From positions 1-64,000 of the forward strand of contig JBEWZL010000272.1 in NCBI GenBank assembly GCA_045837725.1: a stretch of 64,000 bases of DNA. The letters are read 5' to 3'. Positions 1,164 through 56,447 of this stretch are shown one piece after another. The notes under the pieces were generated by a model. That model ran no database searches, was not told the DNA's origin, and saw nothing but the letters and a program-made list of their open reading frames with translations. Made by a program: the position numbers and the translations under genes. The DNA comes from Vermamoeba vermiformis. Lineage: Eukaryota. How positions within the stretch are numbered: the first letter of the stretch is position 1; each line of letters opens with the position of its first letter.

Positions 1164-4100
1164 CTACTTGCCAAAGTATTGGCGATACTTCGATACCCAA
1201 ATCCCTTCATCCACGGGCAAGATCGGAGCGCGCCTTCCGGCTTGAGAGAATAACTGTGTGTCCAGCATATCTTCGATCTTCATGCCGTGGTACTTTATAG
1301 TAGCCTCGGGATTGGACTTGGTCAGGTGAAAGATGCAAACCGTGCGTAGTTCTGTCTTGTTCTTGCACTTCTGTACCAGCGGCGTTTGCTTGATTACGTA
1401 GTCGATAATCTGACAACTCATTAGTAACGAAATGAGGTGAAATTGAACACCCACCTTAATTTTTGCTTCTAAGTCCAACATTGAGTCGCTTCTTACTAGT
1501 ATAGGCTGGCCTTCATCTCCGACAGTCATAATAGACGTAGGAGCAGCAAGCGTTGAAATGCGGACAAACTTGAAGATTCTAATGTCCGTGTCATTTTTGG
1601 GTGGTTTTCCCCAAAATGAATCGTTCGAGATGAGCGGGAACAACTTCAAACCAAGCTTCGCCAATAACTGCTCGATCTTCTTCTTCAAACCTCCGACAGT
1701 GACAACAGCAGCAGCGGTGTTCTTGTTTGTCAAGTACTGAACGGTTTGAACTGCTTTTGTTTTTCCCACCTTAATGTTGTCGTTAAGCTGGGCTATTACT
1801 TTCTTTTGCGCGAGTCGCCAGTGGTTGAAGTACTCGAGAGTAATCGGATAACGTTTGAAGCTGCGAGTGGCATCAGAAGGAAAGGCACTTTCACACACAC
1901 TCTCAAACGCGACAGTATCTCTAATTTTTACCTGTTGCAATAATTCGATTAATATTCATGCAAGTCGTGTGATAATACTTACAGTGCAGCCGGGGTGGCG
2001 AGTGTCGAACAAAGAGCGAAGCGCCTCACGTCCTCGACGCAAAGCATCGATAAATTGTTGCTTCTGTGTGGGACTACGGAAGCCGCCAGCGGTACATAGT
2101 GCAGCTAATAGCCCATTTACGAGGTTGGCTGCAATAGTACCGCAAATCGACTTGTCTCGGGGAGTAACAAAGCCATCTTGAGGACGAAGACAAAGTCTAA
2201 TTCTTGCACTAATGTCCATCATTTGTTCCTTATCTTTGACGTGTTGTGGGAACAGGCTGTGGAGAAATTTCGGAGGCAATGCAAGAATCAGGTCGTCTCC
2301 AGCCTGCAAGTCAGCAAGATCGGCCTCTTCAGCTTCACGGGCAGCGTCGTCAAGTGGTAACAGGCATTTAACTTGGTCGAAGTTGGAAGTAAATTCCACC
2401 AAGTCAGGCATGAAGTGTAGGCGACCATAAGTGAAGACGCTTTCTTTCAGTTTGTACCGGTTGAATAACTTCGGATGCGCTAATTGCAAGACCGCACTGC
2501 TCCAGATAAATGTCAAGCAATCTTGAAGCAAAAAGGCGGCACGTAGCAAGTCGTCATTGTAATCCAGAGCGTCCAAATGGCGTGCTGATAATTTGTTAGT
2601 GTAAGACCTTAAATTGTGTTGTTGTACGCACCTTGGACGACATGATCCAAAAGGAGGTAGAAATACGTTCCAATGCTGTCGGTGAACTTCCGTGGGAATA
2701 AACACATCGTCTCGGTGAGCACAGTCTGAAGTGGGCTGCAGCGCATCATTTCTAACGGTATTAAGCCGCATTGATACAGAGCTTTCAACATATTGAATAG
2801 CTCAGTCAGCGTTTCCCCAAGCCTAGCCATTTCATGATACGCGTCAAGCAGTTGTTGCATAGTCGGATTTTGTAGAGTGATTTCAAGACGCGGTCCGTAT
2901 GCCTTCTGAGGCATGATGGTTGAATAGTATTTTTCCGCTCGCTTCAACTCCTTTCGAGAATTAACGTCATTGATCTCTTCTTTAAGTCTAAGCACATTCA
3001 TTAGGATACAATTAACAATAAATTATAATAATCAAACTTACCGAGAATGAAGTTTATCGGAGACTCTAACATCCGCTCCGATAAGTTGTTTGACTTTCTC
3101 AACTGGGAATGCTAGGACCGCATGATAAGAGTTCGAGAACGGAATTTGGTGTCGGAAATCCTCACTTCCTTTGTGATAAGCTTTGACACGCGCCAACAAC
3201 AAATGTTGTTTTGAGTACTCGATCATAGTACTGGTGCACGTGCCAATTCCAAAGTTGGGATATTCCGTGATTCTGCAGCAAGAGTAAGTTGAAATTCGCT
3301 TAAGATTAACTACGCTTACTTAGGTTTTAAGTAGTCTTCGTCAAACTTGTTGCAACGAGCATGCTCAAAGATTGTTGTGTTGCGAGTCATTAGACCTTTT
3401 AATGGCGAGTTGTGCATGTCAGCAAGAAGCGAGGTGAAGTTTCTGGTAAAGAACATTGTAACGTTGCTATCGTCCCCGCATCTGTACACAAAAGAATTAG
3501 GACAAATGTCACGTGTCATAATGTCAATTCCTGACACGTGTCAAGAATTCTCAGATCACTTACTCTAAATCCAACCCAATATCTTGCATGAACATCACTC
3601 TATTCCCTGGAGTGTGGTAGTAGACTTTGTCCATATCAAATAGATCGTTCAGCTTGTCGCTTAATTTGCTGATGTCATCGGCAGATGTTACTGGATCTTT
3701 GCGGCCAAAGTGCTGGATGACAAATACTGGCTTGAATCTGTAAGCACGATTAGTATTTAATTAAATAATGGTGAAAAACCTTACTTGGGTTCTTTTTCGA
3801 CAAGTTTTTTAATTCGGCGCTGAATGTGACGAGTAGTTTCGGGTAAAATTCTTGTCGTTTCCCCTGGCCTTCTTTCTTCAGAGACTGCTACGAAGGGTAA
3901 TGCGACTGGTGTGGTTCTGCCTTGTTCGGGAGCGTCTACAACACCTAATGGGAACAGTTAACAAGTTGAATTCAACGCTAAGTTTCCGTACCTTGATATG
4001 CGCATTTCTCAAAAAACATTGTGATTGCTTCAACTGACCTTTCCCAAGGACAGTCCGGAAACACCGCAAATACGGGAATATTCCCGTCAACAAATCTTGG

Positions 4101-11080: not shown

Positions 11081-11351
11081 CTTTAGATGACGCATCAGTT
11101 CTACTCAAAGGGTCAATTTATATACCAGCATAATGGATCAAACATGAATTTTGGTAAGTGCACTAGATAATTGTTTGATCCAGGATTTGGATTTGAACGA
11201 ATAAATTAATTTAAATAAATTAAACATTAATACAGATGACTAACGATTTTATTAGGTTTTGCATGGAAATAGATCACGATCCCGACTGTTCGCGCGCGCA
11301 ATTCTGTAATTCGGTAATAAATAAATAAATTTTAGTAACTTGCACAGTATT

Positions 11352-11733
11352 TTTTAGGAGATCGTCTCCGCGCTGGAGACGACCTTTACGGACTTGGTTT
11401 TTTTAGGAGATCGTCTCCACGCTGGAGACGACCTTTACGGACTTGGTTTTTTTAGGAGATCGTCTCCACGCTGGAGACGACCTTTACGGACTTGGTTTTT
11501 TTTTGCAGATCGTCTCCGCGCTGGAGACGACCTTTACGAACTTCGTTTTTTTTTGGAGATCGTCTCCACGCTGGAGACGACCTTTACGAACTTAGTTTTT
11601 TTCGCAGATCGTCTCCGCGCTGGAGACGACCCTTACAGACTTAGTTTTTTTTTGCAGATCGTCTCCGCGCTGGAGACGACCCTTACAGACTTAGTATTTT
11701 TCCCAGATCGTCTCTGCGCTGGAGACGACCCCT
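11352..11733. repeat. Palindrome array 1: 8 units, 49-50 bp period, TCGTCTCC-N5-GGAGACGA plus GGACTTRG(T)n linker
   Basis: Stems start at 11362, 11411, 11460, 11510, 11560, 11609, 11659 and 11708. Confidence 0.95.
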
Positions 11734-12285: not shown

Positions 12286-15200
12286 TTAATGTTTATTTTC
12301 AAATTTGAGATACAATTGCCATAATTCACTGTCTGACTTTGGCATAAACCCCCCACGCTTCTTTGCTGAACGCGTTTCATCGAACAAACCAGTTTCAAGA
12401 ATTTTGTCACGTAAACTTCCTTGTGAGTACCTTGGTTTCTTGGCCTTGCTTCCTGGGTGTGATATCAAGTGAAACAAACAGTGCAGGGCCAACTCTTTTT
12501 TTGCTGAAAACTTGCTGAAGTGAGGGTTATTGTAGACAACAGTGTGCACCAAAGCGCGGTAAAACGTGAAGTCAAATATTGGCTGATCTCCAAAAAGGCT
12601 GATTGTTTGATCATCTGTCAGTGTTTCGAGTTTAGTTGTGGAATCATTGTAACAATAACACCAAACTAAAGTTGAGCTATCGTTCATGCGATGCGTCCAA
12701 AAATGGTTGATGCCAGGGTAAGGCAAAATCCTCAAATCAAGCTTTGTTATTTGTTTTGCTAATTGTATCTTGATGAGCTGCTCACTAAGATAAGGAATAC
12801 GGCTATCTGCCTGAGGGCAAACTAATTTTGCTTGTTTGTTCATCTCGGGAATGACTTCTTCACGTATTGATTTCCATGCTTTCAAATAGTGAAGGCTGTG
12901 AGAATTGAAACTTTGTGGTCCAGAGTAACTGCAAATCAAATTAATGAACTTCATTGGGGTGATGCTGCTGTAATCCACGATGTGTTGCACTTTGGATCCA
13001 GGGAAACAAGGCATTGTTTCTTTGCTGGCAGCAACACTGAGCCATGTGTTATTTTCTGCACCAATAATTGACGAAATATCTTTCCATAGCAAATTGAGCA
13101 GGTTGGCAGCGATAGTTTGCAATTCAGATTCAGGCATTGATATGTTTGAAATATTTTGGGGATTGGCAATAACAATGGTCATTCTTTGAAGCACAGTTGG
13201 TAGTGCATCCCACATCTTATCAGGTAGAAGTAGTCGCAGGTACTTTCTAGGCAGAGGGAAGCATCTAGCTCCAATGACAGGGCTTGGATCAATGGCACCA
13301 ATTGCATCATCACCGTCTTGAGGGTCATTTAGCATATCAATGAAGTCTCGTTGAGGGTAAGGTGACTTTAGAACACTGTACTGGACAGGATCTGCAATCG
13401 TTATCATTTCAGGGGCAATGTAGAAGTGACCATATTCATTCAAAGCTTGCGCCATGTTCATTTCAGAAAATAAAGCAGGGTGCTTCAAAAGGGAAACAAA
13501 TCCACACCAAAGAAATCGCAAGCAGTCCTCCAGAATTATTGCAAGTCGTTGTAAGCCCTCTGAGAAGAAATCTGCACAAGCAAGAGCATTTCTTGTTCCT
13601 TTAAATCAGTCAGCACTTAAGCTACTGCCTAAAAAAAAATATTAACTTACCATCAGGCATGAATACTGAAGAATAGATGGAGAATAAGAAGGAGTCAATG
13701 GCAGTATACTGGATTTTTGCTGGAAGGACAACGCTTTTTGATGGGATGACTTGCAACGGACTAAATTGAATGCACCACTCTGGGATTTGCTTTTCTGCTA
13801 TCAATTCCGAGAGCCAGTTGTGCACATTAATAAATTCCTTTGCTGTTGATTGAAGGAAATCATAGACGTCCTCAATTCTCTCCTGTGATGGATCTGCCAA
13901 CGTCACTTCAAGACGGCAACCATAGTTCTTGGAAGCTATGTTGCTGAGATATAAATTGGCTATGTCTTTTTCTTCTCGAGCAAACAGTTGTTCAGATTGA
14001 CCTTTCAACTTCTGACGCAAATGTGATGGAAATTCAGTGTTCTCTGGGCATGAGGCATTTACTCTTTCAAAGGGAAATAGCAGAGTAGCATATGAACTTT
14101 GACTCATGGGCATGTTGTATCTGAATTCTTGGCTGCTTCTTGCATAGGCTTTGATTTCTGAAATTGGTGATTCTTTTGACTTATGTTTCACATCCAAGCT
14201 CTGCAGTAATGGAGATCCCAAGTTCGAGAAGCTAGTGTTATGTTGACCTGGATTCTTTTTGTTGTACAACCAACAGAGAGGGGATGTAGAGATCTTCTTC
14301 AAGCTTTCGAGAAACAAAGGATTCCATGAAATGTTTAAGCAACTGTCATTTTCCAGCTCAGGATCAGGGCTAAAAGAACATATTAGCTTTTTGTCTATCT
14401 TACAAACACGTTGCTTACAAAATATCAAATGCCAAGTCTTGCAGGTAATGCAAATCAGATAGCTTTACTCGATCTATCTCAAAGGAAGCAGATAGATCTC
14501 TTAAGAATGCAGTGGCATCTTCTTTACTATGCAGAGTTTCTTTATCACCATAAATCTGCGTGACAAAAAGAACTTCAACTCTGTTACCAATAATTTAGCA
14601 AAAGGGCAATATATTCGCAAGCTAGAACTCACTTTTTTGCCTTCCATTTGAAATTTTTAACAGCTGCATCAATAGCTTGATAAACTCCTGCATGAATTGC
14701 AGTAGAGAAGCCAGGCACACCAGCAGCAAAAGCGATGTCAACTTTATCAGCAGTTACTTTTGGTGCTGTTGTTGGAACAGCCAATTTGACCGAATTAATT
14801 GCTGCGTTAAAACATTATTCTATACTCTAGCTGGTTGCAGGCACTTACACTGCCATATAACTTCGTGCCAAAAAGAGCGGAGGAAATCCTGATCATAATC
14901 TTCATGGCTCAATGCAGGAAAGCACACCCATATTATAAACCTGTTTTTAACCTCCCTACCAAACATTAACATTGTTATTATTAATTCAACCATGCAAGCA
15001 TTAACATACCCAAGCTTGAAATTTAATTTCGAGGACAATAGACCTTGCTTCACAGTTACTTTGGAACTGGGCATCCTTAAGTTTGGCTTTGGATAAAGGC
15101 ACACTGACATTTTTTCTTTGACGAAGGAAAGCTTTGAAGAATACAGAACTGTTGCATCAGCATCAAGTTGGCTGTAAACAGTGACTGGAGTTTTGATGTA

Positions 15201-16326
15201 TGGTAAGCCAAAGAAACTGCCATCATCACTAATCCAGGTTCTAATATCATTTTGGTAATCCAATGCCTCTGCAGCCTAAAACATGAATTAAGTCAAAAAA
15301 CCTTTAAAACTATTTAGTACCTCTAGAGACGTCACCATATGGTGATGTTCCAAAGTGTAGACTGAAGGAGGCCAAGTTGTTGGAGGAATAAACTCTTTAA
15401 GCATCTCTACACGTGCAACCTCATCATCACTAGCATAGCCTCCATCATCATTTTGTACCCTTGAAGGTGCTGTTATTTACTTGGCTTGACATGTAGTTTA
15501 ACACTTACAGTATTAAAGGCACCAATGCATCCATCAACGCCTCTTTTGAGTGGAATGCCTTGTTTGCCCAGTCTAAAAACATAGGAACATCATGCACAGG
15601 ATTATCCTTCTCTGTTTCCAAAGCTGGAAGGGCAGCCTGCTTGCTAAATGCTTTGTTTTGGTCACTGCCAGCAGATCTCTCCTCAGCGTCAGATTCCTTG
15701 CTTACTCTGCGTCCTGCCGGTGCTATTAATGGGTAGCATATTGAGGATTGGCTTTGACTGCAAGAGGAGCCTTTAGGATCATCATTACTTTCATCGGAGA
15801 AGATGGTGCTTGCAGATCGGATCGAAACATCATCAACAAAAAAATCAGTGGAAATATTGCTGCTGTCACTAAATATGGTGCTCGCAGAGCTGTCCTCTGG
15901 ATTGCTATCAAAACTAGCCACCTACAAAGCAAGGATAAGTAACTGAAACTTAATAAAGTTGATAAAATTCTACCACAGAAGATTTTATTAATTTTATCGA
16001 AGGAAATTTCACCTTTGTCTCTGGCTCAGTTTGCTGTGTGTCTATCTGGATAGCTTTCTGTTAATATTTCTTGTTGCAGCTACTACAAAGATAAAAAAAA
16101 ACTTTTTCCAATTACTGCCTACCTCACTAAATATCGTGCTTGTTGAACTTTCGTCTTGATTGGTACCACTAGCAGCTTGCTACAATGCAGAGGTAAGTAA
16201 TTGAGACTAAGGAAATCTCCCAAGATTAAAATTAATAAAATCTACTGCGGTAGATTTTTGTAGCTGACCTCTCTTTCGATGCGAAGGCGTGCAATGCGTT
16301 CCACCAAGCTTTCAAATGGCTCGTCC
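12286..16326 (-). CDS. Large spliced protein with Rep_trans-like motifs (element B gene Y); exact start uncertain (~16326-16383)
   Basis: ORFs 15505..15921, 14820..15263, 13622..14428 and 12286..13521 linked by introns. Motifs: QLDAD, LQDLAFDI (14424-14438), EIKAYARSSQEFR (Tyr 14144-14146), YGCRLEVTL (RLE 13907-13915). C-terminal KKELALHCLFHL matches KTELRTVCIFHL of copy A. Confidence 0.7.
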
Positions 16327-18437: not shown

Positions 18438-18637
18438 TTTTGGCGGGTTTATTTTTGGGTGTCAAATTATTAGGTTTTGAGTGTCAAAAGTCCCTTTGTG
18501 GACTAAAAACAGACATAATTAAATGAGAATAGGCCAAATCAGAGTCAATATAGCTGAAAAACTACTATTTATGTAAAACAAAACAAAAACAACAAAAGTG
18601 CCAAAAAAAATGATTGAAGCAGCGTCTCCCTTGGGCT

Positions 18638-21600
18638 TTAGTTCTCTTTTGCCTTCTTTGCTGCAGGCTCTTCATCAGCTTTTGGTGGTGGACGCACTGG
18701 CTTTGTCTTGGGTTTAAGAAGGCGCGTGAGAGGAGCAATACTAGGAGGTGCCAGTTTTGGAGGGGAAAAGATGAAATTTTCTGCTCGTGCTGCCGACTTG
18801 CAGGCTTTGACCAATTCTTCATTAGTAAGACCATGTGCAGCCAATAGTGAGAGTAATTTCCTTGCAAAAATGGTTAATACTTGAAAACATTGCAGCTAAA
18901 ACTTACTCGACAATTTTAATCCAAAAATCAAGATGGACAGTCTGCTTTGAAGAGCAGCACACCTCCACACCCTCAAAGCCCCACTCTGCAGAGCATTCCA
19001 AGCAGCGAGATTCCTGATCTTTTCTGAACAAGAGATGGATAAGAGGAACATAGCACTTGCTGCAATGAACGTATGCAAGGGAAGAAGCAGCAAACTTTGT
19101 TTCAGGAGCAGTGGAAAGATATGCCAACCACTCTGCTAAACAGTGGCCAAACCCGACAGTCTCAGCATTTGCAGGAAGTGCATGGTCCTGCACTTGCAAC
19201 CAAAATAACCACGATCCAAGATCCACAACTGGAGATGCTGTGAATCGCTTGAAAAATGATGTCCAAGGGTAATAACTATACCCAAGGACAGTGGCATTTT
19301 GGTTGATTCCCTCCTGTAAACATTACTCCAGTTAGTAGAGACAAAACAATGTTAACTAATTGCTTACATCAGTGTCAGGGTAGTAAGCAAGCCAAAATGG
19401 GTTAGCAGTAGCAGGGATGTGAAGCACTTCACCAGGCTTAGCAGTAACTATGTTGAAGTTGTTTGCTGGATCATCCTTGGCTTCCTGGGCTGAATTTTTT
19501 GGTAATTAAGAAACAGGCTCCACATAAAATATGTTTAAAACTTACACCAAGGGTTTAATGACTTAGATTCAGCAAAAATGAGCCGCCCATTTGCTGTTCC
19601 TGCATGAAACAAAACAAGTGGAGCTTTGTGTGGCACCATCAAAACTGCTGAAAAGGCATGGAAGTTGAGCCACGTGAATTCATTGACACAACCAGCCAAT
19701 GCACTTGTGTTGGAAGCCATTTGCTGTGGAAGAACACCATGACTCAATGGAGAACCAAAAAAGATTGCTTGGCAGCGCTTGATTAGCATCTCAGGCAGCA
19801 CTTCACCCTCTAATTAGCAAAGGGTGTTAATAATAGTAAAAATAAAGATAATAATTAGTAAACTAAGTACTTACGAGAGACACAGCCAATCCTGGGTTCT
19901 TCACCTGCTGGCACTTCCTTTGTGAACAAAATGCTTTCATTACCCGTGTTCACAAAGGTAACTGCACTTGAAGGCTTGTAACTCTCGTATAATAAACGAG
20001 GAAAGACCTCTGGCTTCACAACACTGGTGTGCTGCAGATTTAAAGCCTGAAAAAAAATAATTAATTGGTTTTTTTCAAATTCATTAACTTAATTATGATT
20101 ACCTCTTCCCACGTTACAACAGCTTTCTCCCCAACTGCATTGACCAGTGTGGTGCACAGGCAATGCACATCAGCCAAAGCCTCCTGTTGGGGTCGAGAAT
20201 ATGCTTTGAAATCTTTTTCTCCTCCCTCAGCAGCAACTTGCTCACCATAGTACATGATGATCTGGGAACCTTCCCCGTAGAAGGTCATGTCATCGAGTTC
20301 AAGGAGACCAATAATCATGTCATTTGCTGTAGAATGAGGTGAGATTAGAAGCAGAGGAAGAAAAGTTTGTTCAAAACTTACGTGAGGCAATGAACCTTTG
20401 AAGGCAGTAAAACACTGCTGCCAAGCGTTTGGTTTTGAGTGGGGGATACTCCTGTACAAGCTAGAATTAGTACGCTGTAAATCTAATGATAAAATCTACT
20501 GCAGAAGATTTTTATAAATTTTATTAAAAGGAAATTTCAATCGCATTTGATTGTTATTTAGCCTCTATTGCTGGCAATATAAATATAAAGAGCTGTATTA
20601 TAAGGCAAACAAATAAAAGAAACAAAAAAAAACTGTTTTGGATCTGGTTTTGGATCTGCACAAACAGGTTTCTATCCTTACCTCAATAATCAGCGAGACT
20701 TTCTCATGCAAGCCTTTGAAACTTGGCTCAGTAAATTCAAAATTGCCAGCCAAGTAGTACGCTGTCGATTCACTAGTGCTGACGAGAATGCTTTTGAATG
20801 GTAAAAGCAATTGGGTGCCCAGTCTTGCTTCAACTTTGAAAAGAAATTAGCCAATATGTATATAGGGTCATTAATAACTTACTAAGAAGCAAGTATTGCC
20901 CCAAAGAGGCAATAAAATCACTTCGCCATGCCTTGTCCACCAAGGATAGAAGCAGCACATCAAGCTTTGCGTCTTTCAACGCTGCTATTGGCAGGGTTTT
21001 TCCTTTGACAGTGAAAATTTTAAGGGCAGGCTTGGCATCCTCTTCAAACAAGTCCACAGAAGCTGATTCGTCATCTTCATCTTGCTTCTGCGCATCTGCT
21101 TTTTTCTGGATTGGGGTGCCTGCTGTGTTGAAACGGCCTGGTTGACCATCATCAGGCTCTTGGCTGTTGTCTTCTGTGTTGGAACTGCCAACATTTTTTT
21201 TAGGTGTTCTTCTGGCACGACCAGGAGTTCCACCATCGTACTTTCTTTTTTTCACTCTCTTTTTTGGAGTTGAGCTGGTCTCTCCAGCTTCAGCTTCCTC
21301 CTCATCATCAACATCTATCGGGGTCCCTGGAGGGGTGTTATTGTTGGCAGGAGGTAGAGTTTGGACTTGTTTTTGCGGAGTCTGTGCATCCACTTGCAGC
21401 TGCTGATTTGTTACTTGTTGATCAGCAACAACCTGCTGTTGCTCCTGGACTGATGGCTGTTGCTCCTGGCGAGTCGCCTGATTTTCCACCGGCTGTTGGA
21501 CTTGTGCAGCAGAAGCTAACTGCTGCTGAGGCTGCACTGCTCCTCCTTGCTGTTGCCCAGCAACTGCTTGTTGCTGAGGCGGAGCAGCAACTTGTTGTTC

Positions 21601-23097
21601 CTGCTGAGCAGCCACAGGAACTGCAGGATTTTCTGCAGCCAGTTGCTGCAGCTCAAGTTCAGAAAAAGTGAAGTTGTCCATCTTCTTTTCCCATGCAGAC
21701 CAACTTAACTGTTGGTCAACTCGAATTTGGCACAGTTTCCTTTTAAATGCAGCAAGGTCTTTGCCTTGTGCCTCCTATGTGCGAATCATTCAGTTTTTTT
21801 TTTAATAATTTAAAATTGAAAAGGAACTCACCAGCGCATTGTAATGCTTGCGAAGCTTGTCAAAGGCCTTCACCGCATGATCAACAAACAATTCAGCCAT
21901 AATGCTAACATTTTGGGCTGAATTAACATCAGCACCTAAAAAAAAGATTTAGAATGGTGAAATACCTCACACTATTTGCTTACGTTTGTGGTGAACCTCC
22001 TGCCACTGTGCTTGCTGTCGCTCCATGAAAATCTTCTGATCTTTCCTTGGCAATTTTGCCAAGCACTGCAGGTCAGTTTTCAGAAAAGGGCTAAAAGAAT
22101 ATGTTATTCTTAGTTTTAGAGGTTTAATATTGGTTATTACTTACACTTGGAAGAACTTTTTCCTTGCCTCATGGTTGGCATGGTAAGTTGAAAGCTCTTT
22201 GAGGACATTATAATCCAACGACCTCAGCTGCCATTCAACATCTTTTAACAAATGGTTAAAAAAGATCTAATTAAAACAAAAATCAACTTACCATGAAGTT
22301 TGCGACCAGCAATAGCATCCCAATAGTTTTTGGTTCGATTGCCTGCGAACCAATTATCTTGGGTATCCCCATAAGCTTCATGAGCCAAATGCTGCACCTG
22401 GAGGATCTTTTCCAGGTAGGACATCTTACGCACAGTCTGTTCTTTAGACTGGATGCTGTGTCCTTCAGCTCGCATCTCCACCTCGGAGTCAAAAGCATAA
22501 AGAAGGATTTGATGCTCCAAATTCTTCTTGTGCAGATCACACAAGTAAATCAGAGCTTCAAATCGATGCTGACCTACAATAAACTGTTAATAACCTAAAT
22601 AAAGCAAAAAAAACAACTACTTTTACTTACCTGCGAAGATGGCAACCTTTTTTATCTTGCCATTTGTCACAATGACACCATGGAGGGATCCTTGGTTCGA
22701 ATCCCAACCATGCTTCTCTATTTTGTTGATCACTCGATTGAGACCAACACGGTTTAGAGTGCGGATGTTGAACCTAACACGAAAGGAAATTAGAGTCAAT
22801 AATATATTTAAACTGACAATACTTACGCTCTACCAACAATAACTGACTCCTTCTTATTTAGTGGGTGGCAGCTTTGCGTGATGGTGAAGCGTCTGAGGTG
22901 GTTTTTGCACACTGCTGCGCCATCATCAATTATTGACGTGGGGATGCTACAAGGGATTAGTTAGGCTTGAAAACAATAGATTGGAGTTACTTACGAGTAC
23001 TGTGCCTTCTCTTTGCAGTCTGGGACGCAGCAATTTGCCTTGTTGAAGACCTTGGGATTTGCCTTGAGTTCGGCACACGTGACCATTTTCCACTCAT
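18638..23097 (-). CDS. Multidomain protein: C3H zinc finger, ParB/Srx-like domain, Gln-rich linker, degenerate JmjC/cupin, C4 zinc finger
   Basis: Manual splicing of ~16 exons stays in frame from MSGKMVTC (23097) to the stop at 18638. Reads CCVPDC..CKNH; FNIRTLNRVGLNRVINKIEKHGWD..VAIFAG|QHRFEAL; RKMSYLEKI; LAKLPRKDQ; AKPGEVLHIPA..FW; CSKCYVPLIHLLF..CLEC. Confidence 0.7.
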
Positions 23098-23669
23098 TAG
23101 AGAGTTGGTGTGACTATTTAAAAAGCTATTAATTTATATGTAAAAATATATAGGGAATATTGTTTAATTAAAATACATTGAATTAGGAGGAGCTGTGAAA
23201 AGAAAAAAGTCAAATCTGACACAAAAAAATTAAATTGCAATTTTACCCTCCAAAATAACCTTGTAAAGGTTAAAATATTATTATTAAAATTATTACATAG
23301 TTAAATTAATTATTTGAGCAATACTTACCAGAACATTCTGTTTCCAATACTGATCTGAGATCTCCACGTAAGATCTCTGTTGACTTTGCACAGCAGCTGC
23401 AAGGTCTGCTGACATAACACGTATATTTGTGTTACTCATGATAACAGCAAAATATTGAAATGAAATAGAACCGTTGGAAAAAAGATTTTGTTTGGTTGTG
23501 AAATCTCCCTAGAGAGAAAAAATTATTCTGGGGAGATTTTGTCAACCTTCTGCAACAGTTATACCCCCCTTATATTGACTCAGTTGTGTGGGTTTTCACT
23601 CTCAAACCTTTTCACTAATTTTGCACATTGCAGTCAGCAGGGCCATTGTGCAACCTGCATCCAGAATAC

Positions 23670-24790
23670 CTTTGGATGCGAGTTCAGATCGGGGACTCAT
23701 GTTGCTCATCTCGTGCCTGTTGACCTGTTCTATTGAATGATACTGCAGATAGCTCAATATGAAGCACACATCACAATTTAAGCCACATGAAATCTCACAA
23801 CACTAAAAATAATAAAATTCTACTGGGGAAGATTTTTATTAAGTTTATTAACCCGAAATTTCTCCTTTCTACTGGCCCAGCTACTTATGCTTTAATATAG
23901 AGAGCTCCACATCAATTCATATTATTTCTGCCATCAGGTATAGTAAGCAAAGCAAATAAAAAATTGACTTTGGATCGGATTCAGATCTGTGCTCACCTTG
24001 CTAGTTTGGTGCCTGTTGACCTTCTCTTTGCCCATATATTGCAGACAGCTTGATATGAGGTATTGGCAACCCATTTGAGCAGCATTAAATCTCAAAGTAA
24101 GCGCAAGAAAAATCTACTGCAGAAGAATTTTATAAATTTTATTCGAATGAAATTTCTCGTTGCTGTTGGCTTTGTTTATTACCTAGTGACTCTAATTTGT
24201 TGGTGCTCGTGAGTTTAACTATACTGATGCTTTCTATTAGGCAGATTTAGTCATTGGTTGTGAAAAAATATCGGATCGGTTTTCGAAGAACACTGGAATG
24301 TGTCAACTTTCATAGCTATACTTCCCTTAATACCCAGTGCTTACCAGCAATGGCCTAACTTGTGAGTGTTCCTATTCCTGCACAATTCCACCCTGTGAGA
24401 TTCACAGCAGGCTCTCTGGGATTGGTCCAAAAACTTTTTGTTTCACAACTTTGGTTCACAACAAAAAAAAAATAATTACACACGGGCTTCCTTGTGCATT
24501 CATTTGGTTGCCTTTCAACTAACAACTGCAGGGACCGGGTGGAGAGTTGCAGAGCTTCTACTTAATAGGATGCCTAAGTCTCGGACCTTCTTTCTAAAAC
24601 TTAACTTCCCCGCCAAGATCTTGCTGCATGGTGGTCTTTGCACTAGTAGATCGACAGTGTGGTGCCTTGCGTTGCCTCTAGCACTGCTACTGCATGCTAG
24701 GGTCCTGGAGCCCTAGACTAACACTTCCTGTGATGTGATTGGTCCAAAAAGTTTTTGTTCACTCTTTGAACCACAACAAAAAAATTTCGC
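23670..24790. repeat. Degenerate ~300-bp-period repeats in the upstream non-coding region of element B
   Basis: TGGAT..TTCAGATC..GTGCCTGTTGACC..TGCAGAYAGCT at ~23672 and ~23971. AAAAT(T)CTACTG..GAAGA at ~23815 and ~24110. GATTGGTCCAAAAA..CACAACAAAAAA at ~24420 and ~24737. Confidence 0.65.
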
Positions 24791-25244
24791 AAAAGATTTT
24801 GTTTTTGTTTATCTATTCTTGCAGCCACAACACCACCACTCTCATGCACAGACAAGCACAGTGTGTTTCCCATGGTCGATTGCTTGGTGCACTCCTGTGT
24901 GGTAATACACTCTGCGTGTCTGTGCACTCCTGCGTGAGACTGTTTGCCCATCTGAGCCACGGTTGCCAGGTAAGTCACTTTTTAATTTCTTGAGCAGTGG
25001 CTATACCTGAAATAGTATGCCACTGTTTTCCCATTAATTACATGATTGGTTTCAATTTTTTACGACACCAAGGCTAATTTTTGGATGTCAAAATTTTTTA
25101 TTCCAGATTAGCTCAAATTTATTTCTTTTACTTGATTTTTTCACTTGTGCCACTAGGCACTTGCCCAATTAATTGTTTTATGGGCCAAATTCATTATACA
25201 GCCTTTTTTTCTGAACTGGCACCTCGATGTGCTAATCCTGGATG

Positions 25245-26040
25245 AGCTGTTCCAAGTGGAACCAGCCCTTTCAGACTTAGCCTGCCCCAGTACTATGTTT
25301 CTGCGGGGAACTAGCCTCAATTGGGCTTTGTTTCCTCACCCCTGGTTCCTTGTGGAACCGACCCTAGTTTGGACTTTGTTTCTTTCCAAGGGTCGGTTCC
25401 TCATGGAACCGGGGTTTGCAGGACTTAGTTTTTTTTCACCCCCGGTTCCTTGAGGAACCGACCCCTGTAGGACTTAGTTTTTTTCAGGGGTCGGTTCCTC
25501 GCCGAACCGGCCCTTTTTGGACTTTGTTTTTTTTTGACCCCGGTTCCTTGAGGAACCGCCCCCTCTTGGACTTTATTTTTTTTCAAGGGTCGGATCCTCA
25601 TGGAACCGGGGTTTGCAGGACTTAGTTTTTTTTAACCCCCGGTTCCTTGAGGAACCGACCCCTGTAGGACTTAGTTTTTTTTAACCCCCGGTTCCTTGAG
25701 GAACCGACCCCTCTTGGACTTTATTTTTTTTCAAGGGTCGGTTCCTTGCCGTACCGGCCCCTCTTTGGACTTTATTTTTTCCCAAAGGGCAGTTCCTCAC
25801 AGTACCGGGGTTGCTGGACTTAGTTTTTCTTGCCCCCCGGTTCCTTGAGGAACCGCCCCTTGTTTGAACTTCAATTTTTTTAACAGGTTGGTTCCATGCG
25901 ATACCTCCCCCTGTTAGACTTTGTTTTTACATAGGACCAGCACCACACAAACCAGTCTTCCATGTGTCTGTACCCCTGGCTCCTTGTAGAACCACCCCTT
26001 GTTCAACTTTAGCTTTTCAAAGGGGATGTTCCACATTGCA
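25245..26040. repeat. Palindrome array 2: ~12 clear units plus degenerate flanks, ~49-50 bp period, CGGTTCCTTGAGGAACCG plus GGACTTWG(T)n linker
   Basis: Cores near 25343, 25394, 25443, 25492, 25541, 25591, 25640, 25689, 25739, 25790, 25838 and 25889. Confidence 0.92.
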
Positions 26041-27323: not shown

Positions 27324-27610
27324 CGCATTGTCCAGTCATTGGACGGACCCTCTGTGCCGTGCCTTCAACGTCCTCTTCTTCTCAAAACCTGCGTGACTTG
27401 ACTTGCACTGTCCAAGACTTGGACGCTTAGTGTTGCGTGGCTCGCACCTCCCGGTTATTGGTATCCTCTACACCGTGCCATCAGTGTGCCACTGTCCAGT
27501 TATTGGACGGTCCCTCAGCGCGTGGCTCGCACCATCCAGTTATTGGACGGTCCTCTCAGTGCGTGGCTCGTACCGTCCAGTTATTGGACGGTCCTCTCAG
27601 TGCGTGGCTC
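27324..27610. repeat. Palindrome array 3: ~40-41 bp unit, ACCGTCCA-GTTAT-TGGACGGT plus CTCAGTGCGTGGCTC
   Basis: 3 clean units at 27490-27610 and 3 degenerate units to the left. Confidence 0.9.
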
Positions 27611-34089: not shown

Positions 34090-36400
<2,311 letters not shown>

Positions 36401-56374: not shown

Positions 56375-56447
56375 CGCTCCCACCTGGGTTCGAACCAGGG
56401 ACCTTTCGGTTAACAGCCGAACGCTCTGCCGACTGAGCTATGGAAGC
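56375..56447 (-). tRNA. tRNA-Asn (GTT)
   Basis: GCTTCCATAGCTCAGTCGGCAGAGCGTTCGGCTGTTAACCGAAAGGTCCCTGGTTCGAACCCAGGTGGGAGCG forms a cloverleaf; followed by a T-run. Confidence 0.97.

Follow-up and report, generated by a model that had tools for sequence, protein, structure and literature searches.

The gene described here lies on the minus strand of a 64,000-nt stretch of Vermamoeba vermiformis DNA (contig JBEWZL010000272.1, positions 1-64,000; hereafter the window, in whose coordinates all positions are given), where it extends from 23439 down to at least 20682 with ten exons and nine introns. Judging by its sequence, this is a true coding gene from a eukaryote rich in introns, belonging to a very small orphan family, and the window itself looks like nuclear DNA of such a eukaryote. 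The spliced product contains the G-x-x-R P-motif (Box II) in the form GQHR (..AIFAG|QHRFEAL..), for which the placement of the neighboring strand and helix is predicted. The best explanation of the product, to which we give about an even chance, is a nuclear protein with a divergent ParB/sulfiredoxin (Srx)-like nucleotide-binding domain. As to the domain by itself, the balance tips slightly towards a remote member of the ParB/Srx type, unproven as it is, and this domain is read as closest to the GW-bearing phage/prophage ‘ParB-like nuclease domain’ proteins and to DGQHR/DndB.

Gene structure and the intron within the GQHR motif

When the frames were joined by script, the resulting reading frame comprised 709 codons with no stop codons and was still open at 20682. 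All nine introns have GT..AG ends, the donors being GTAAGT in seven cases, GTAAGC in one and GTGAGT in one, and eight of the nine are 48-57 nt long; the first, of 215 nt, is tentative. The ATG at 23439 is preferred as the start codon, with an alternative ATG at 23086. The exons and the two introns discussed in the text are as follows:

23329..23439, minus strand: exon E1 (tentative), ATG at 23439-23437, codons 1-37, GTAAGT donor, in-phase joining to the frame starting at 23113
23114..23328, minus strand: intron I1 (tentative), 215 nt, GTAAGT..AAATAG, far longer than the other introns
22995..23113, minus strand: exon E2, carrying together with E3 a cysteine/histidine (Cys/His) pattern; no Pfam match
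22827..22946, minus strand: exon E3, with introns of 48 and 53 nt on either side, both GTAAGT..AG
22631..22773, minus strand: exon E4, N-terminal half of the putative ParB/Srx-like domain
22574..22630, minus strand: intron I4, 57 nt, GTAAGT..TTGTAG, of in-frame length with three stop codons, interrupting the G codon of G|QHR
22292..22573, minus strand: exon E5, GQHRFEAL.. plus the region of strongest family conservation (..VRKMSYLEK.LQ.., WF..R..YW)
22145..22241, minus strand: exon E6; the relative P0007 aligns over the E5/E6 junction once its insert is cut
21984..22090, minus strand: exon E7, containing ..LAKLPRKDQKIF.., 19 residues resembling the first helix of sigma-70 region 4
21832..21935, minus strand: exon E8, joined in frame
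20883..21774, minus strand: exon E9, with a glutamine-rich (Q-rich) stretch, an acidic run, a basic KKRVKKRK.. cluster and a hydrophobic C-terminal region
20682..20833, minus strand: exon E10, the last exon joined in frame

In an earlier note on this DNA, made from the letters alone, a domain hidden across short exons had been described at 21985-23097. Reading the sequence and joining the frames bore out short exons with GTAAGT..AG introns on the minus strand of the region named, the gene as a whole being much larger (ten exons from 23439 to 20682). Intron I4 was found to be exactly as proposed there (22574-22630, 57 nt), with the N-terminal half of the putative domain encoded on one side of it (22631-22773) and the GQHR half on the other (22292-22573). 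Exon E4 contributes N-I-R, a helix ending in HGW, two hydrophobic strands and ..AIFA together with the first base of the G codon. Two alternative AG acceptors can be read inside the intron, and as both of them lead into stop codons, the splice at 22574-22630 is the sole frame-keeping choice there. The stretches quoted in support of the pattern, namely FNIRTLNRV.., ..AIFAG|QHRFEAL.., RKMSYLEKI and LAKLPRKDQ, are all present in the spliced product. It was a mistake, on the other hand, to consider GQHR invisible among the open reading frames (ORFs), as ..IVGQHRFEAL.. can be read even without splicing in frame 22245-22586, where a G codon is also formed by the final bases of the intron. Three raw-read RNA runs carrying the same species label, compared with 18500-24800, yielded 5, 15 and 11 partly fitting low-complexity reads with no joints and are uninformative on splicing and expression.

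Relatives of the GQHR exon

A HMMER search with the 94-residue product of the GQHR exon against 1.84 billion representatives returned exactly three proteins (E values of 1.3e-10, 1.1e-9 and 2.5e-8), all of which are short and 40-53% identical to the exon. Like the other members of their clusters, the relatives are gene calls of prokaryotic style, made on short contigs that look eukaryotic (NCBI, JGI/IMG and Logan). Outside the window, the family is represented only by gene fragments from three other assemblies. The alignment of the GQHR exon family (A1) has 15 invariant columns. No longer homologues were found by the search with the exon ORF and no homologues at all by the search with the N-terminal exon alignment; locus scans of metagenome, viral and genome collections found no loci of the relatives, and tblastn detected no paralogue of the gene within the window.

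The gene calls run through introns in a way that is informative for the splice model. P0006 aligns with E4 from GW onward and consists there of an E4-like stretch, 19 unconserved residues beginning with GK, and then KHWFEAL.., the insert matching the 57-nt intron in both place and length. P0003 and P0007 possess a 17-residue in-frame insert, also beginning with GK, at the E5/E6 junction. When translated through, G|GTAAG reads GK, and once the inserts are removed, the relatives align with the spliced model gaplessly over both junctions. The conservation of the exons, the lack of it in the in-frame inserts and the sharing of intron positions give good comparative support for the gene model.

Profile similarity to ParB-type families

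Profile comparisons were performed with hhalign, using as the query a five-sequence family alignment of the spliced domain, built by script with the inserts cut. The target sets were 120 phage and bacterial ParB_N proteins, 23 GW-type ParB_N proteins from 61 genome loci (the others were removed by a motif filter), 26 DndB/DGQHR proteins (25 of 27 loci retained, two motif-less loci removed), 52 DUF6551 proteins from IMG/VR and 31 canonical ParB/Spo0J proteins, with the following results:

ParB_N (120 sequences): P 0.019, 54 columns, probability 2.4%
GW-type ParB_N (23): P 0.0052, 48 columns with 33% identity, probability 7%
DndB/DGQHR (26): P 0.0027, 39 columns, probability 11%
DUF6551 (52): P 0.032, 12 columns, probability 1.6%
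Canonical ParB/Spo0J (31): P 0.046, 16 unrelated columns, probability 1.2%

The ParB_N, GW-type and DndB alignments share one register, with N-I-R placed on N-P-R, ..KIEKHGW on ..S(I/L)xEFGW, the hydrophobic strands matching and AGQHR placed on GHTR or DGQHR, which is the register proposed in the earlier note. The ParB pattern claimed there holds as far as the splice, the motif and the in-register alignment with phage-type ParB_N and DndB are concerned; the similarity is only weakly above chance, and canonical ParB does not align in register.

Shuffling controls acted on the columns of the N-terminal 110 columns of the family alignment. The observed scores (23.0 for GW-type and 25.2 for DndB) were reached in none of 200 full column shuffles, where the null maxima were 19.2 and 19.5, and in none of 250 shuffles with GQHR held, and reversed targets scored 15.6, 10.3 and 17.6. 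As the motif-fixed null maximum for the GW-type profile was only 17.2, the flanks add a signal of their own in this case. A six-frame scan of the window, comprising 1604 segments, placed the E4 frame fourth for the GW-type hidden Markov model (HMM) with 4.1 bits (E = 3.2) and the E5 frame second for the DndB HMM with 5.9 bits (E = 0.71). When the spliced domain was added, it ranked first of 1605 for the DndB HMM with 9.6 bits (E = 0.054), compared to the 5.9 bits of E5 alone, and scored 1.6 bits with the GW-type HMM. In the ESM Atlas, the top neighbor of the GQHR exon was DUF6551 (0.93; 9 of the 30 matches belonged to that set), and a cluster of DndB fragments was found at 0.86; the retrieved DUF6551 protein reads ..VFNGQHT.. 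and is plainly ParB-like.

Three separate ParB-clan profiles aligning in one register, the failure of all 250 motif-fixed shuffles to reach the GW-type score, the rise to first rank for DndB on splicing and the ParB-clan neighbors in the ESM Atlas all speak against the principal alternative, namely that the gene is real and its domain has a fold peculiar to the lineage and without kinship to ParB/Srx, with GQHR and its flanks resulting from chance and by-eye selection. We nevertheless give this alternative a substantial chance, somewhat short of even, and the observations which weigh against a ParB/Srx-type domain are gathered here.

The scores themselves are low. The hhalign probabilities are just 2.4%, 7% and 11% for ParB_N, GW-type and DndB, and the spliced domain scores only 0.4 and 1.6 bits on our own ParB_N HMMs (120 and 23 members). 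The DUF6551 alignment covers a mere 12 columns, and there is no in-register hhalign alignment with the 31 canonical ParB/Spo0J proteins. The DndB score is nearly all motif, as its motif-fixed null maximum was 24.9 against the observed 25.2, and in the six-frame scan the separate exons ranked merely fourth and second. Over the N-terminal half the query profile approximates a single sequence, the target sets were preselected by motif, and the choice of the locus by eye, on account of the ParB pattern, inflates the P values.

Library searches are silent as well. Pfam, NCBIfam, PHROGs and PADLOC were scanned at E values up to 10 with the exon products taken separately, P0006 and P0004, and no match to ParB, DndB, DUF6551 or DUF3723 was obtained for either exon product, P0006 or P0004. 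In particular, there was no significant profile match to PF02195, PF14072 or PF20188 (DUF6551) and no Pfam match to PF12520 (DUF3723) on any exon product. No ParB-type protein was found in PDB sequence searches either; the top PDB profile match of the exon family was to Plasmodium DBL proteins (3vuu and 7yg2, DBLMSP2; E = 0.012, 65 columns, 22292-22500, the C-terminal two thirds of E5). Both Y-L-E-K-x-L and W-(W/F)-x-x-x-R-x-x-x-W fall within the aligned columns. The match is limited to a single DBL subgroup, Pfam assigns the exon to no family whatever, and chance is the probable cause. The only match of the exon among phages in a tblastn search, a tail protein with E = 9, is noise, and no literature joining DUF3723 with ParB was found.

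Neither do structure prediction and language-model neighbors settle the matter in favor of a ParB-type fold. The AlphaFold2 (AF2) models of P0006 and of the GQHR exon had predicted local distance difference test (pLDDT) values of 48 and 60, both too poor for use, and Foldseek with these low-confidence models gave nothing at E ≤ 0.001 against PDB, the best E value being 4.4. Co-folding of the two exon products as separate chains gave a score of 0.00, which is evidence neither way. The DUF6551 neighbor in the ESM Atlas shares 157 features with the exon, fewer than the 170 that true members of a family typically have in common, and no neighbors at or above 0.85 were found there for P0006.

Finally, the arginine of the motif is not constant. 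GQHR is kept in P0004, and two of the three lineages with a visible site (this gene included) retain it; P0006 has GKHW instead, with the arginine lost. P0005 corresponds to residues 1-55 of P0006, ending just before the W at the position of the GQHR arginine, and P0002 restarts at residue 66; as the two end and restart around the arginine codon, the frame must have been closed exactly there on their contigs. In the P0006/P0005/P0002 lineage this codon may be polymorphic between stop and W, or the copy may be decaying; if it is not, the arginine would be dispensable there.

The apparently closed frame in one relative also bears on the possibility that the stretch in the window is not a functional gene, being decaying or mis-assembled, with the splice model an artefact. 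The gene model lacks transcript support and its 215-nt first intron and 3′ end are uncertain, but 709 codons stay open through nine canonical introns and the relatives are 35-51% identical in protein, with the intron-derived inserts unconserved, and we consider this explanation very improbable.

Relation to named families of the ParB clan

The phage and prophage ‘ParB-like nuclease domain’ proteins (about 190-200 aa, PF02195, for instance from Microbacterium phage) show the same order of elements as the ParB/Srx-like domain described here: N-x-R, then a helix with (F/H)GW at its end, a pair of short hydrophobic strands and, where a further helix starts, a small residue followed by G-x-x-R. The protein differs from them in having 7-10 extra residues between GW and the strands and Q-H in the motif where the phage proteins have H-T, and in lacking an HMM-level match. 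Besides, its domain is part of a eukaryotic protein encoded by many exons and at least 709 residues long, which also has Q-rich parts and parts resembling a nuclear localization signal (NLS).

DndB/DGQHR proteins (PF14072) likewise have G-Q-H-R after a hydrophobic strand and before a helix, with a strand afterwards. The D of D-G-Q-H-R is replaced by A here, leaving four of the five residues, and the likeness scarcely reaches past the motif; there is neither a Pfam or NCBIfam match nor a dnd-type context. With canonical ParB/Spo0J/Noc and parS, the common ground is limited to the G-x-x-R motif and the nearby palindromes, whereas there is no in-register alignment, no match to the ParB helix-turn-helix (HTH) or C-terminal domain and no ParA-like partner seen, and the gene has a eukaryotic nuclear structure.

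In sulfiredoxin, a small residue-G-x-H-R motif occupies the same position in the fold, and the catalytic cysteine is that of G-C-H-R. The gene product is not a sulfiredoxin, since glutamine occupies the position of this cysteine; sulfiredoxin is eukaryotic too, being a single domain of about 100 residues as opposed to the large multi-domain protein here. According to a 2025 survey, the form in which the ParB fold is commonly met in eukaryotes is sulfiredoxin (PMC12704722). The same survey describes ParB-fold fusions, including those with DUF6551, DndB-like and Sigma70 domains, as binding adenosine, cytidine or guanosine triphosphate (ATP, CTP or GTP) outside chromosome segregation (PMC12704722).

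On the reading preferred here, the product of at least 709 residues would begin with a possible Cys/His zinc motif, followed by a putative domain of some 90-100 residues, which intron 22574-22630 interrupts. After it would come a conserved, presumably helical part, a linker rich in Q, a run of acidic residues and a basic cluster resembling an NLS. The ParB/Srx-like module would bind a nucleoside triphosphate through the G-Q-H-R loop and helix, and the bound nucleotide might serve as a switch or cofactor in a role related to chromatin or transcription; the protein would not be a canonical CTP-dependent sliding clamp. If this is true, a large nuclear-looking protein would add a eukaryotic architecture to a fold that, according to the survey, binds CTP, ATP or GTP in many contexts (PMC12704722). 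With a fold still to be demonstrated and so small a family, this is a testable lead and not a discovery.

Rest of the protein and the 3′ end of the gene

Upstream of the domain, E2 and E3 together encode a C-x3-C ... C-x2-H pattern, which may bind zinc. The Q-rich segment of E9 has 36 Q in codons 400-499, and the KKRVKKRK.. cluster of the same exon appears NLS-like; no Pfam family above noise was found in E9. Taken together, the zinc-like motif and the Q-rich, acidic and basic parts suggest, as far as composition and motifs can tell, a nuclear protein related to chromatin or transcription. The 19 residues of E7 resembling sigma-70 region 4 reached E = 0.16 with Pfam Sigma70_r4_2 (12.1 bits against a cut-off of 25.7). 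As a domain call this was rejected, hhalign against 11 region-4 sequences giving P 0.0094 over 19 columns only, with no extension after splicing.

Past E10, the gene may end by read-through to a stop at about 20598, by a mini-exon from 20592 with a stop after 12 codons, or by way of a 230-nt intron to 20451 and onward to a stop at 18641-18643. The minus-strand exons at 18641-20451, with short GT..AG introns, a lysine/proline-rich tail and the stop at 18641-18643, either form a gene of their own, with its start at an ATG near 20322, or belong to the ParB-like gene as its C-terminal part, and there are no Pfam matches in them. Their by-eye likeness to cupins was rejected, with no Pfam match and no H-x-D/E motif seen. 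Phage dioxygenases activated by a ParB-like protein, which a cupin would have called to mind, are described in another article (PMC13229309); no dioxygenase signature adjoining the gene was found here.

A repeated intergenic element is located just past the possible stop of the gene near 20556-20598:

20491..20538, strand not assigned: copy of the repeated intergenic element (family D7), palindrome AAAATCT.CTGCAG.AGATTTT with AATAAA

The element, of about 48 bp (families D7 and I2), occurs at 15965-16012, 16227-16259, 20491-20538, 23815-23862 and 24109-24156, contains AATAAA-like words and lies shortly past the ends of minus-strand coding stretches, which is consistent with a common 3′-end or regulatory signal.

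Palindrome arrays in the window

Three arrays of palindromic units are present in the window, strand not assigned:

25336..25928: array 2, about 12 units of 49 bp, each with a palindrome of the CGGTTCC-N4-GGAACCG type, then GGACTTAG, then a T-run
11346-11730: array 1, 49-bp units sharing GGACTTAG and the T-run with array 2, with a different palindrome
27490-27610: array 3, 41-bp units with a third palindrome

The palindromes are about 18-26 bp long and different in each array, all three arrays are found between minus-strand genes, and each unit of arrays 1 and 2 resembles a hairpin followed by a T-tract. The palindrome CGGTTCCTNNNGGAACCG is confined in the window to 25343-25855, where 15 strand-wise matches at ≤1 mismatch were counted against 0 expected. 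Its single match in IMG/VR was attributed to chance and discarded. Array 2 had been placed 2 kb from the gene, in agreement with the 1.9 kb measured here upstream of the preferred ATG at 23439. Between the start of the gene and array 2, a stretch of about 295 bp is repeated twice in tandem at 23690-24290 (families D9 and D7, spacing 294-296).

The earlier proposal of a ParB-type CTP-dependent clamp loading at the array 2 palindromes, that is, a eukaryotic ParB-parS pair, is the least probable of the explanations considered and is unsupported, for even though the G-x-x-R motif is present, the array is 1.9 kb upstream and palindromes spaced by 49 bp would suit a dimeric binder, the 31 canonical ParBs give no in-register alignment, inspection by eye revealed no Box III (ENLQR-type) motif, Pfam returned neither a ParB HTH nor a dimerisation domain, one relative has W in place of the arginine or a closed frame there, three arrays with three palindromes (11346, 25336, 27490) face one such gene with no tblastn paralogues, and the T-run ending each unit points to other readings.

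Nothing ties the gene to the arrays, and any binding between them is free speculation. In its boldest form this would be a eukaryotic nuclear ParB-fold nucleotide switch other than sulfiredoxin, with a zinc motif and a Q-rich activation-like region, which would recognise the palindromes beside its own gene and so be a counterpart of ParB-parS for the control of chromatin or transcription and not for segregation; we regard this as a long shot.

Other features of the window

Two large minus-strand genes at 1959-3319 and 12289-14464 are paralogous to each other (26-30% identity, E values of 3e-10 to 3e-11) and have no family match. No significant Pfam family was found among the ten large frames scanned in the left 28 kb, an outcome suggestive of a gene region peculiar to the lineage. 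Ordinary cellular genes are present rightward of about 28.5 kb, and they may include one of the SelO type, judging by exons recognised by eye at 34794-36400 on the plus strand, and a tRNA-Asn (GTT) gene is located at 56375-56447 on the minus strand.

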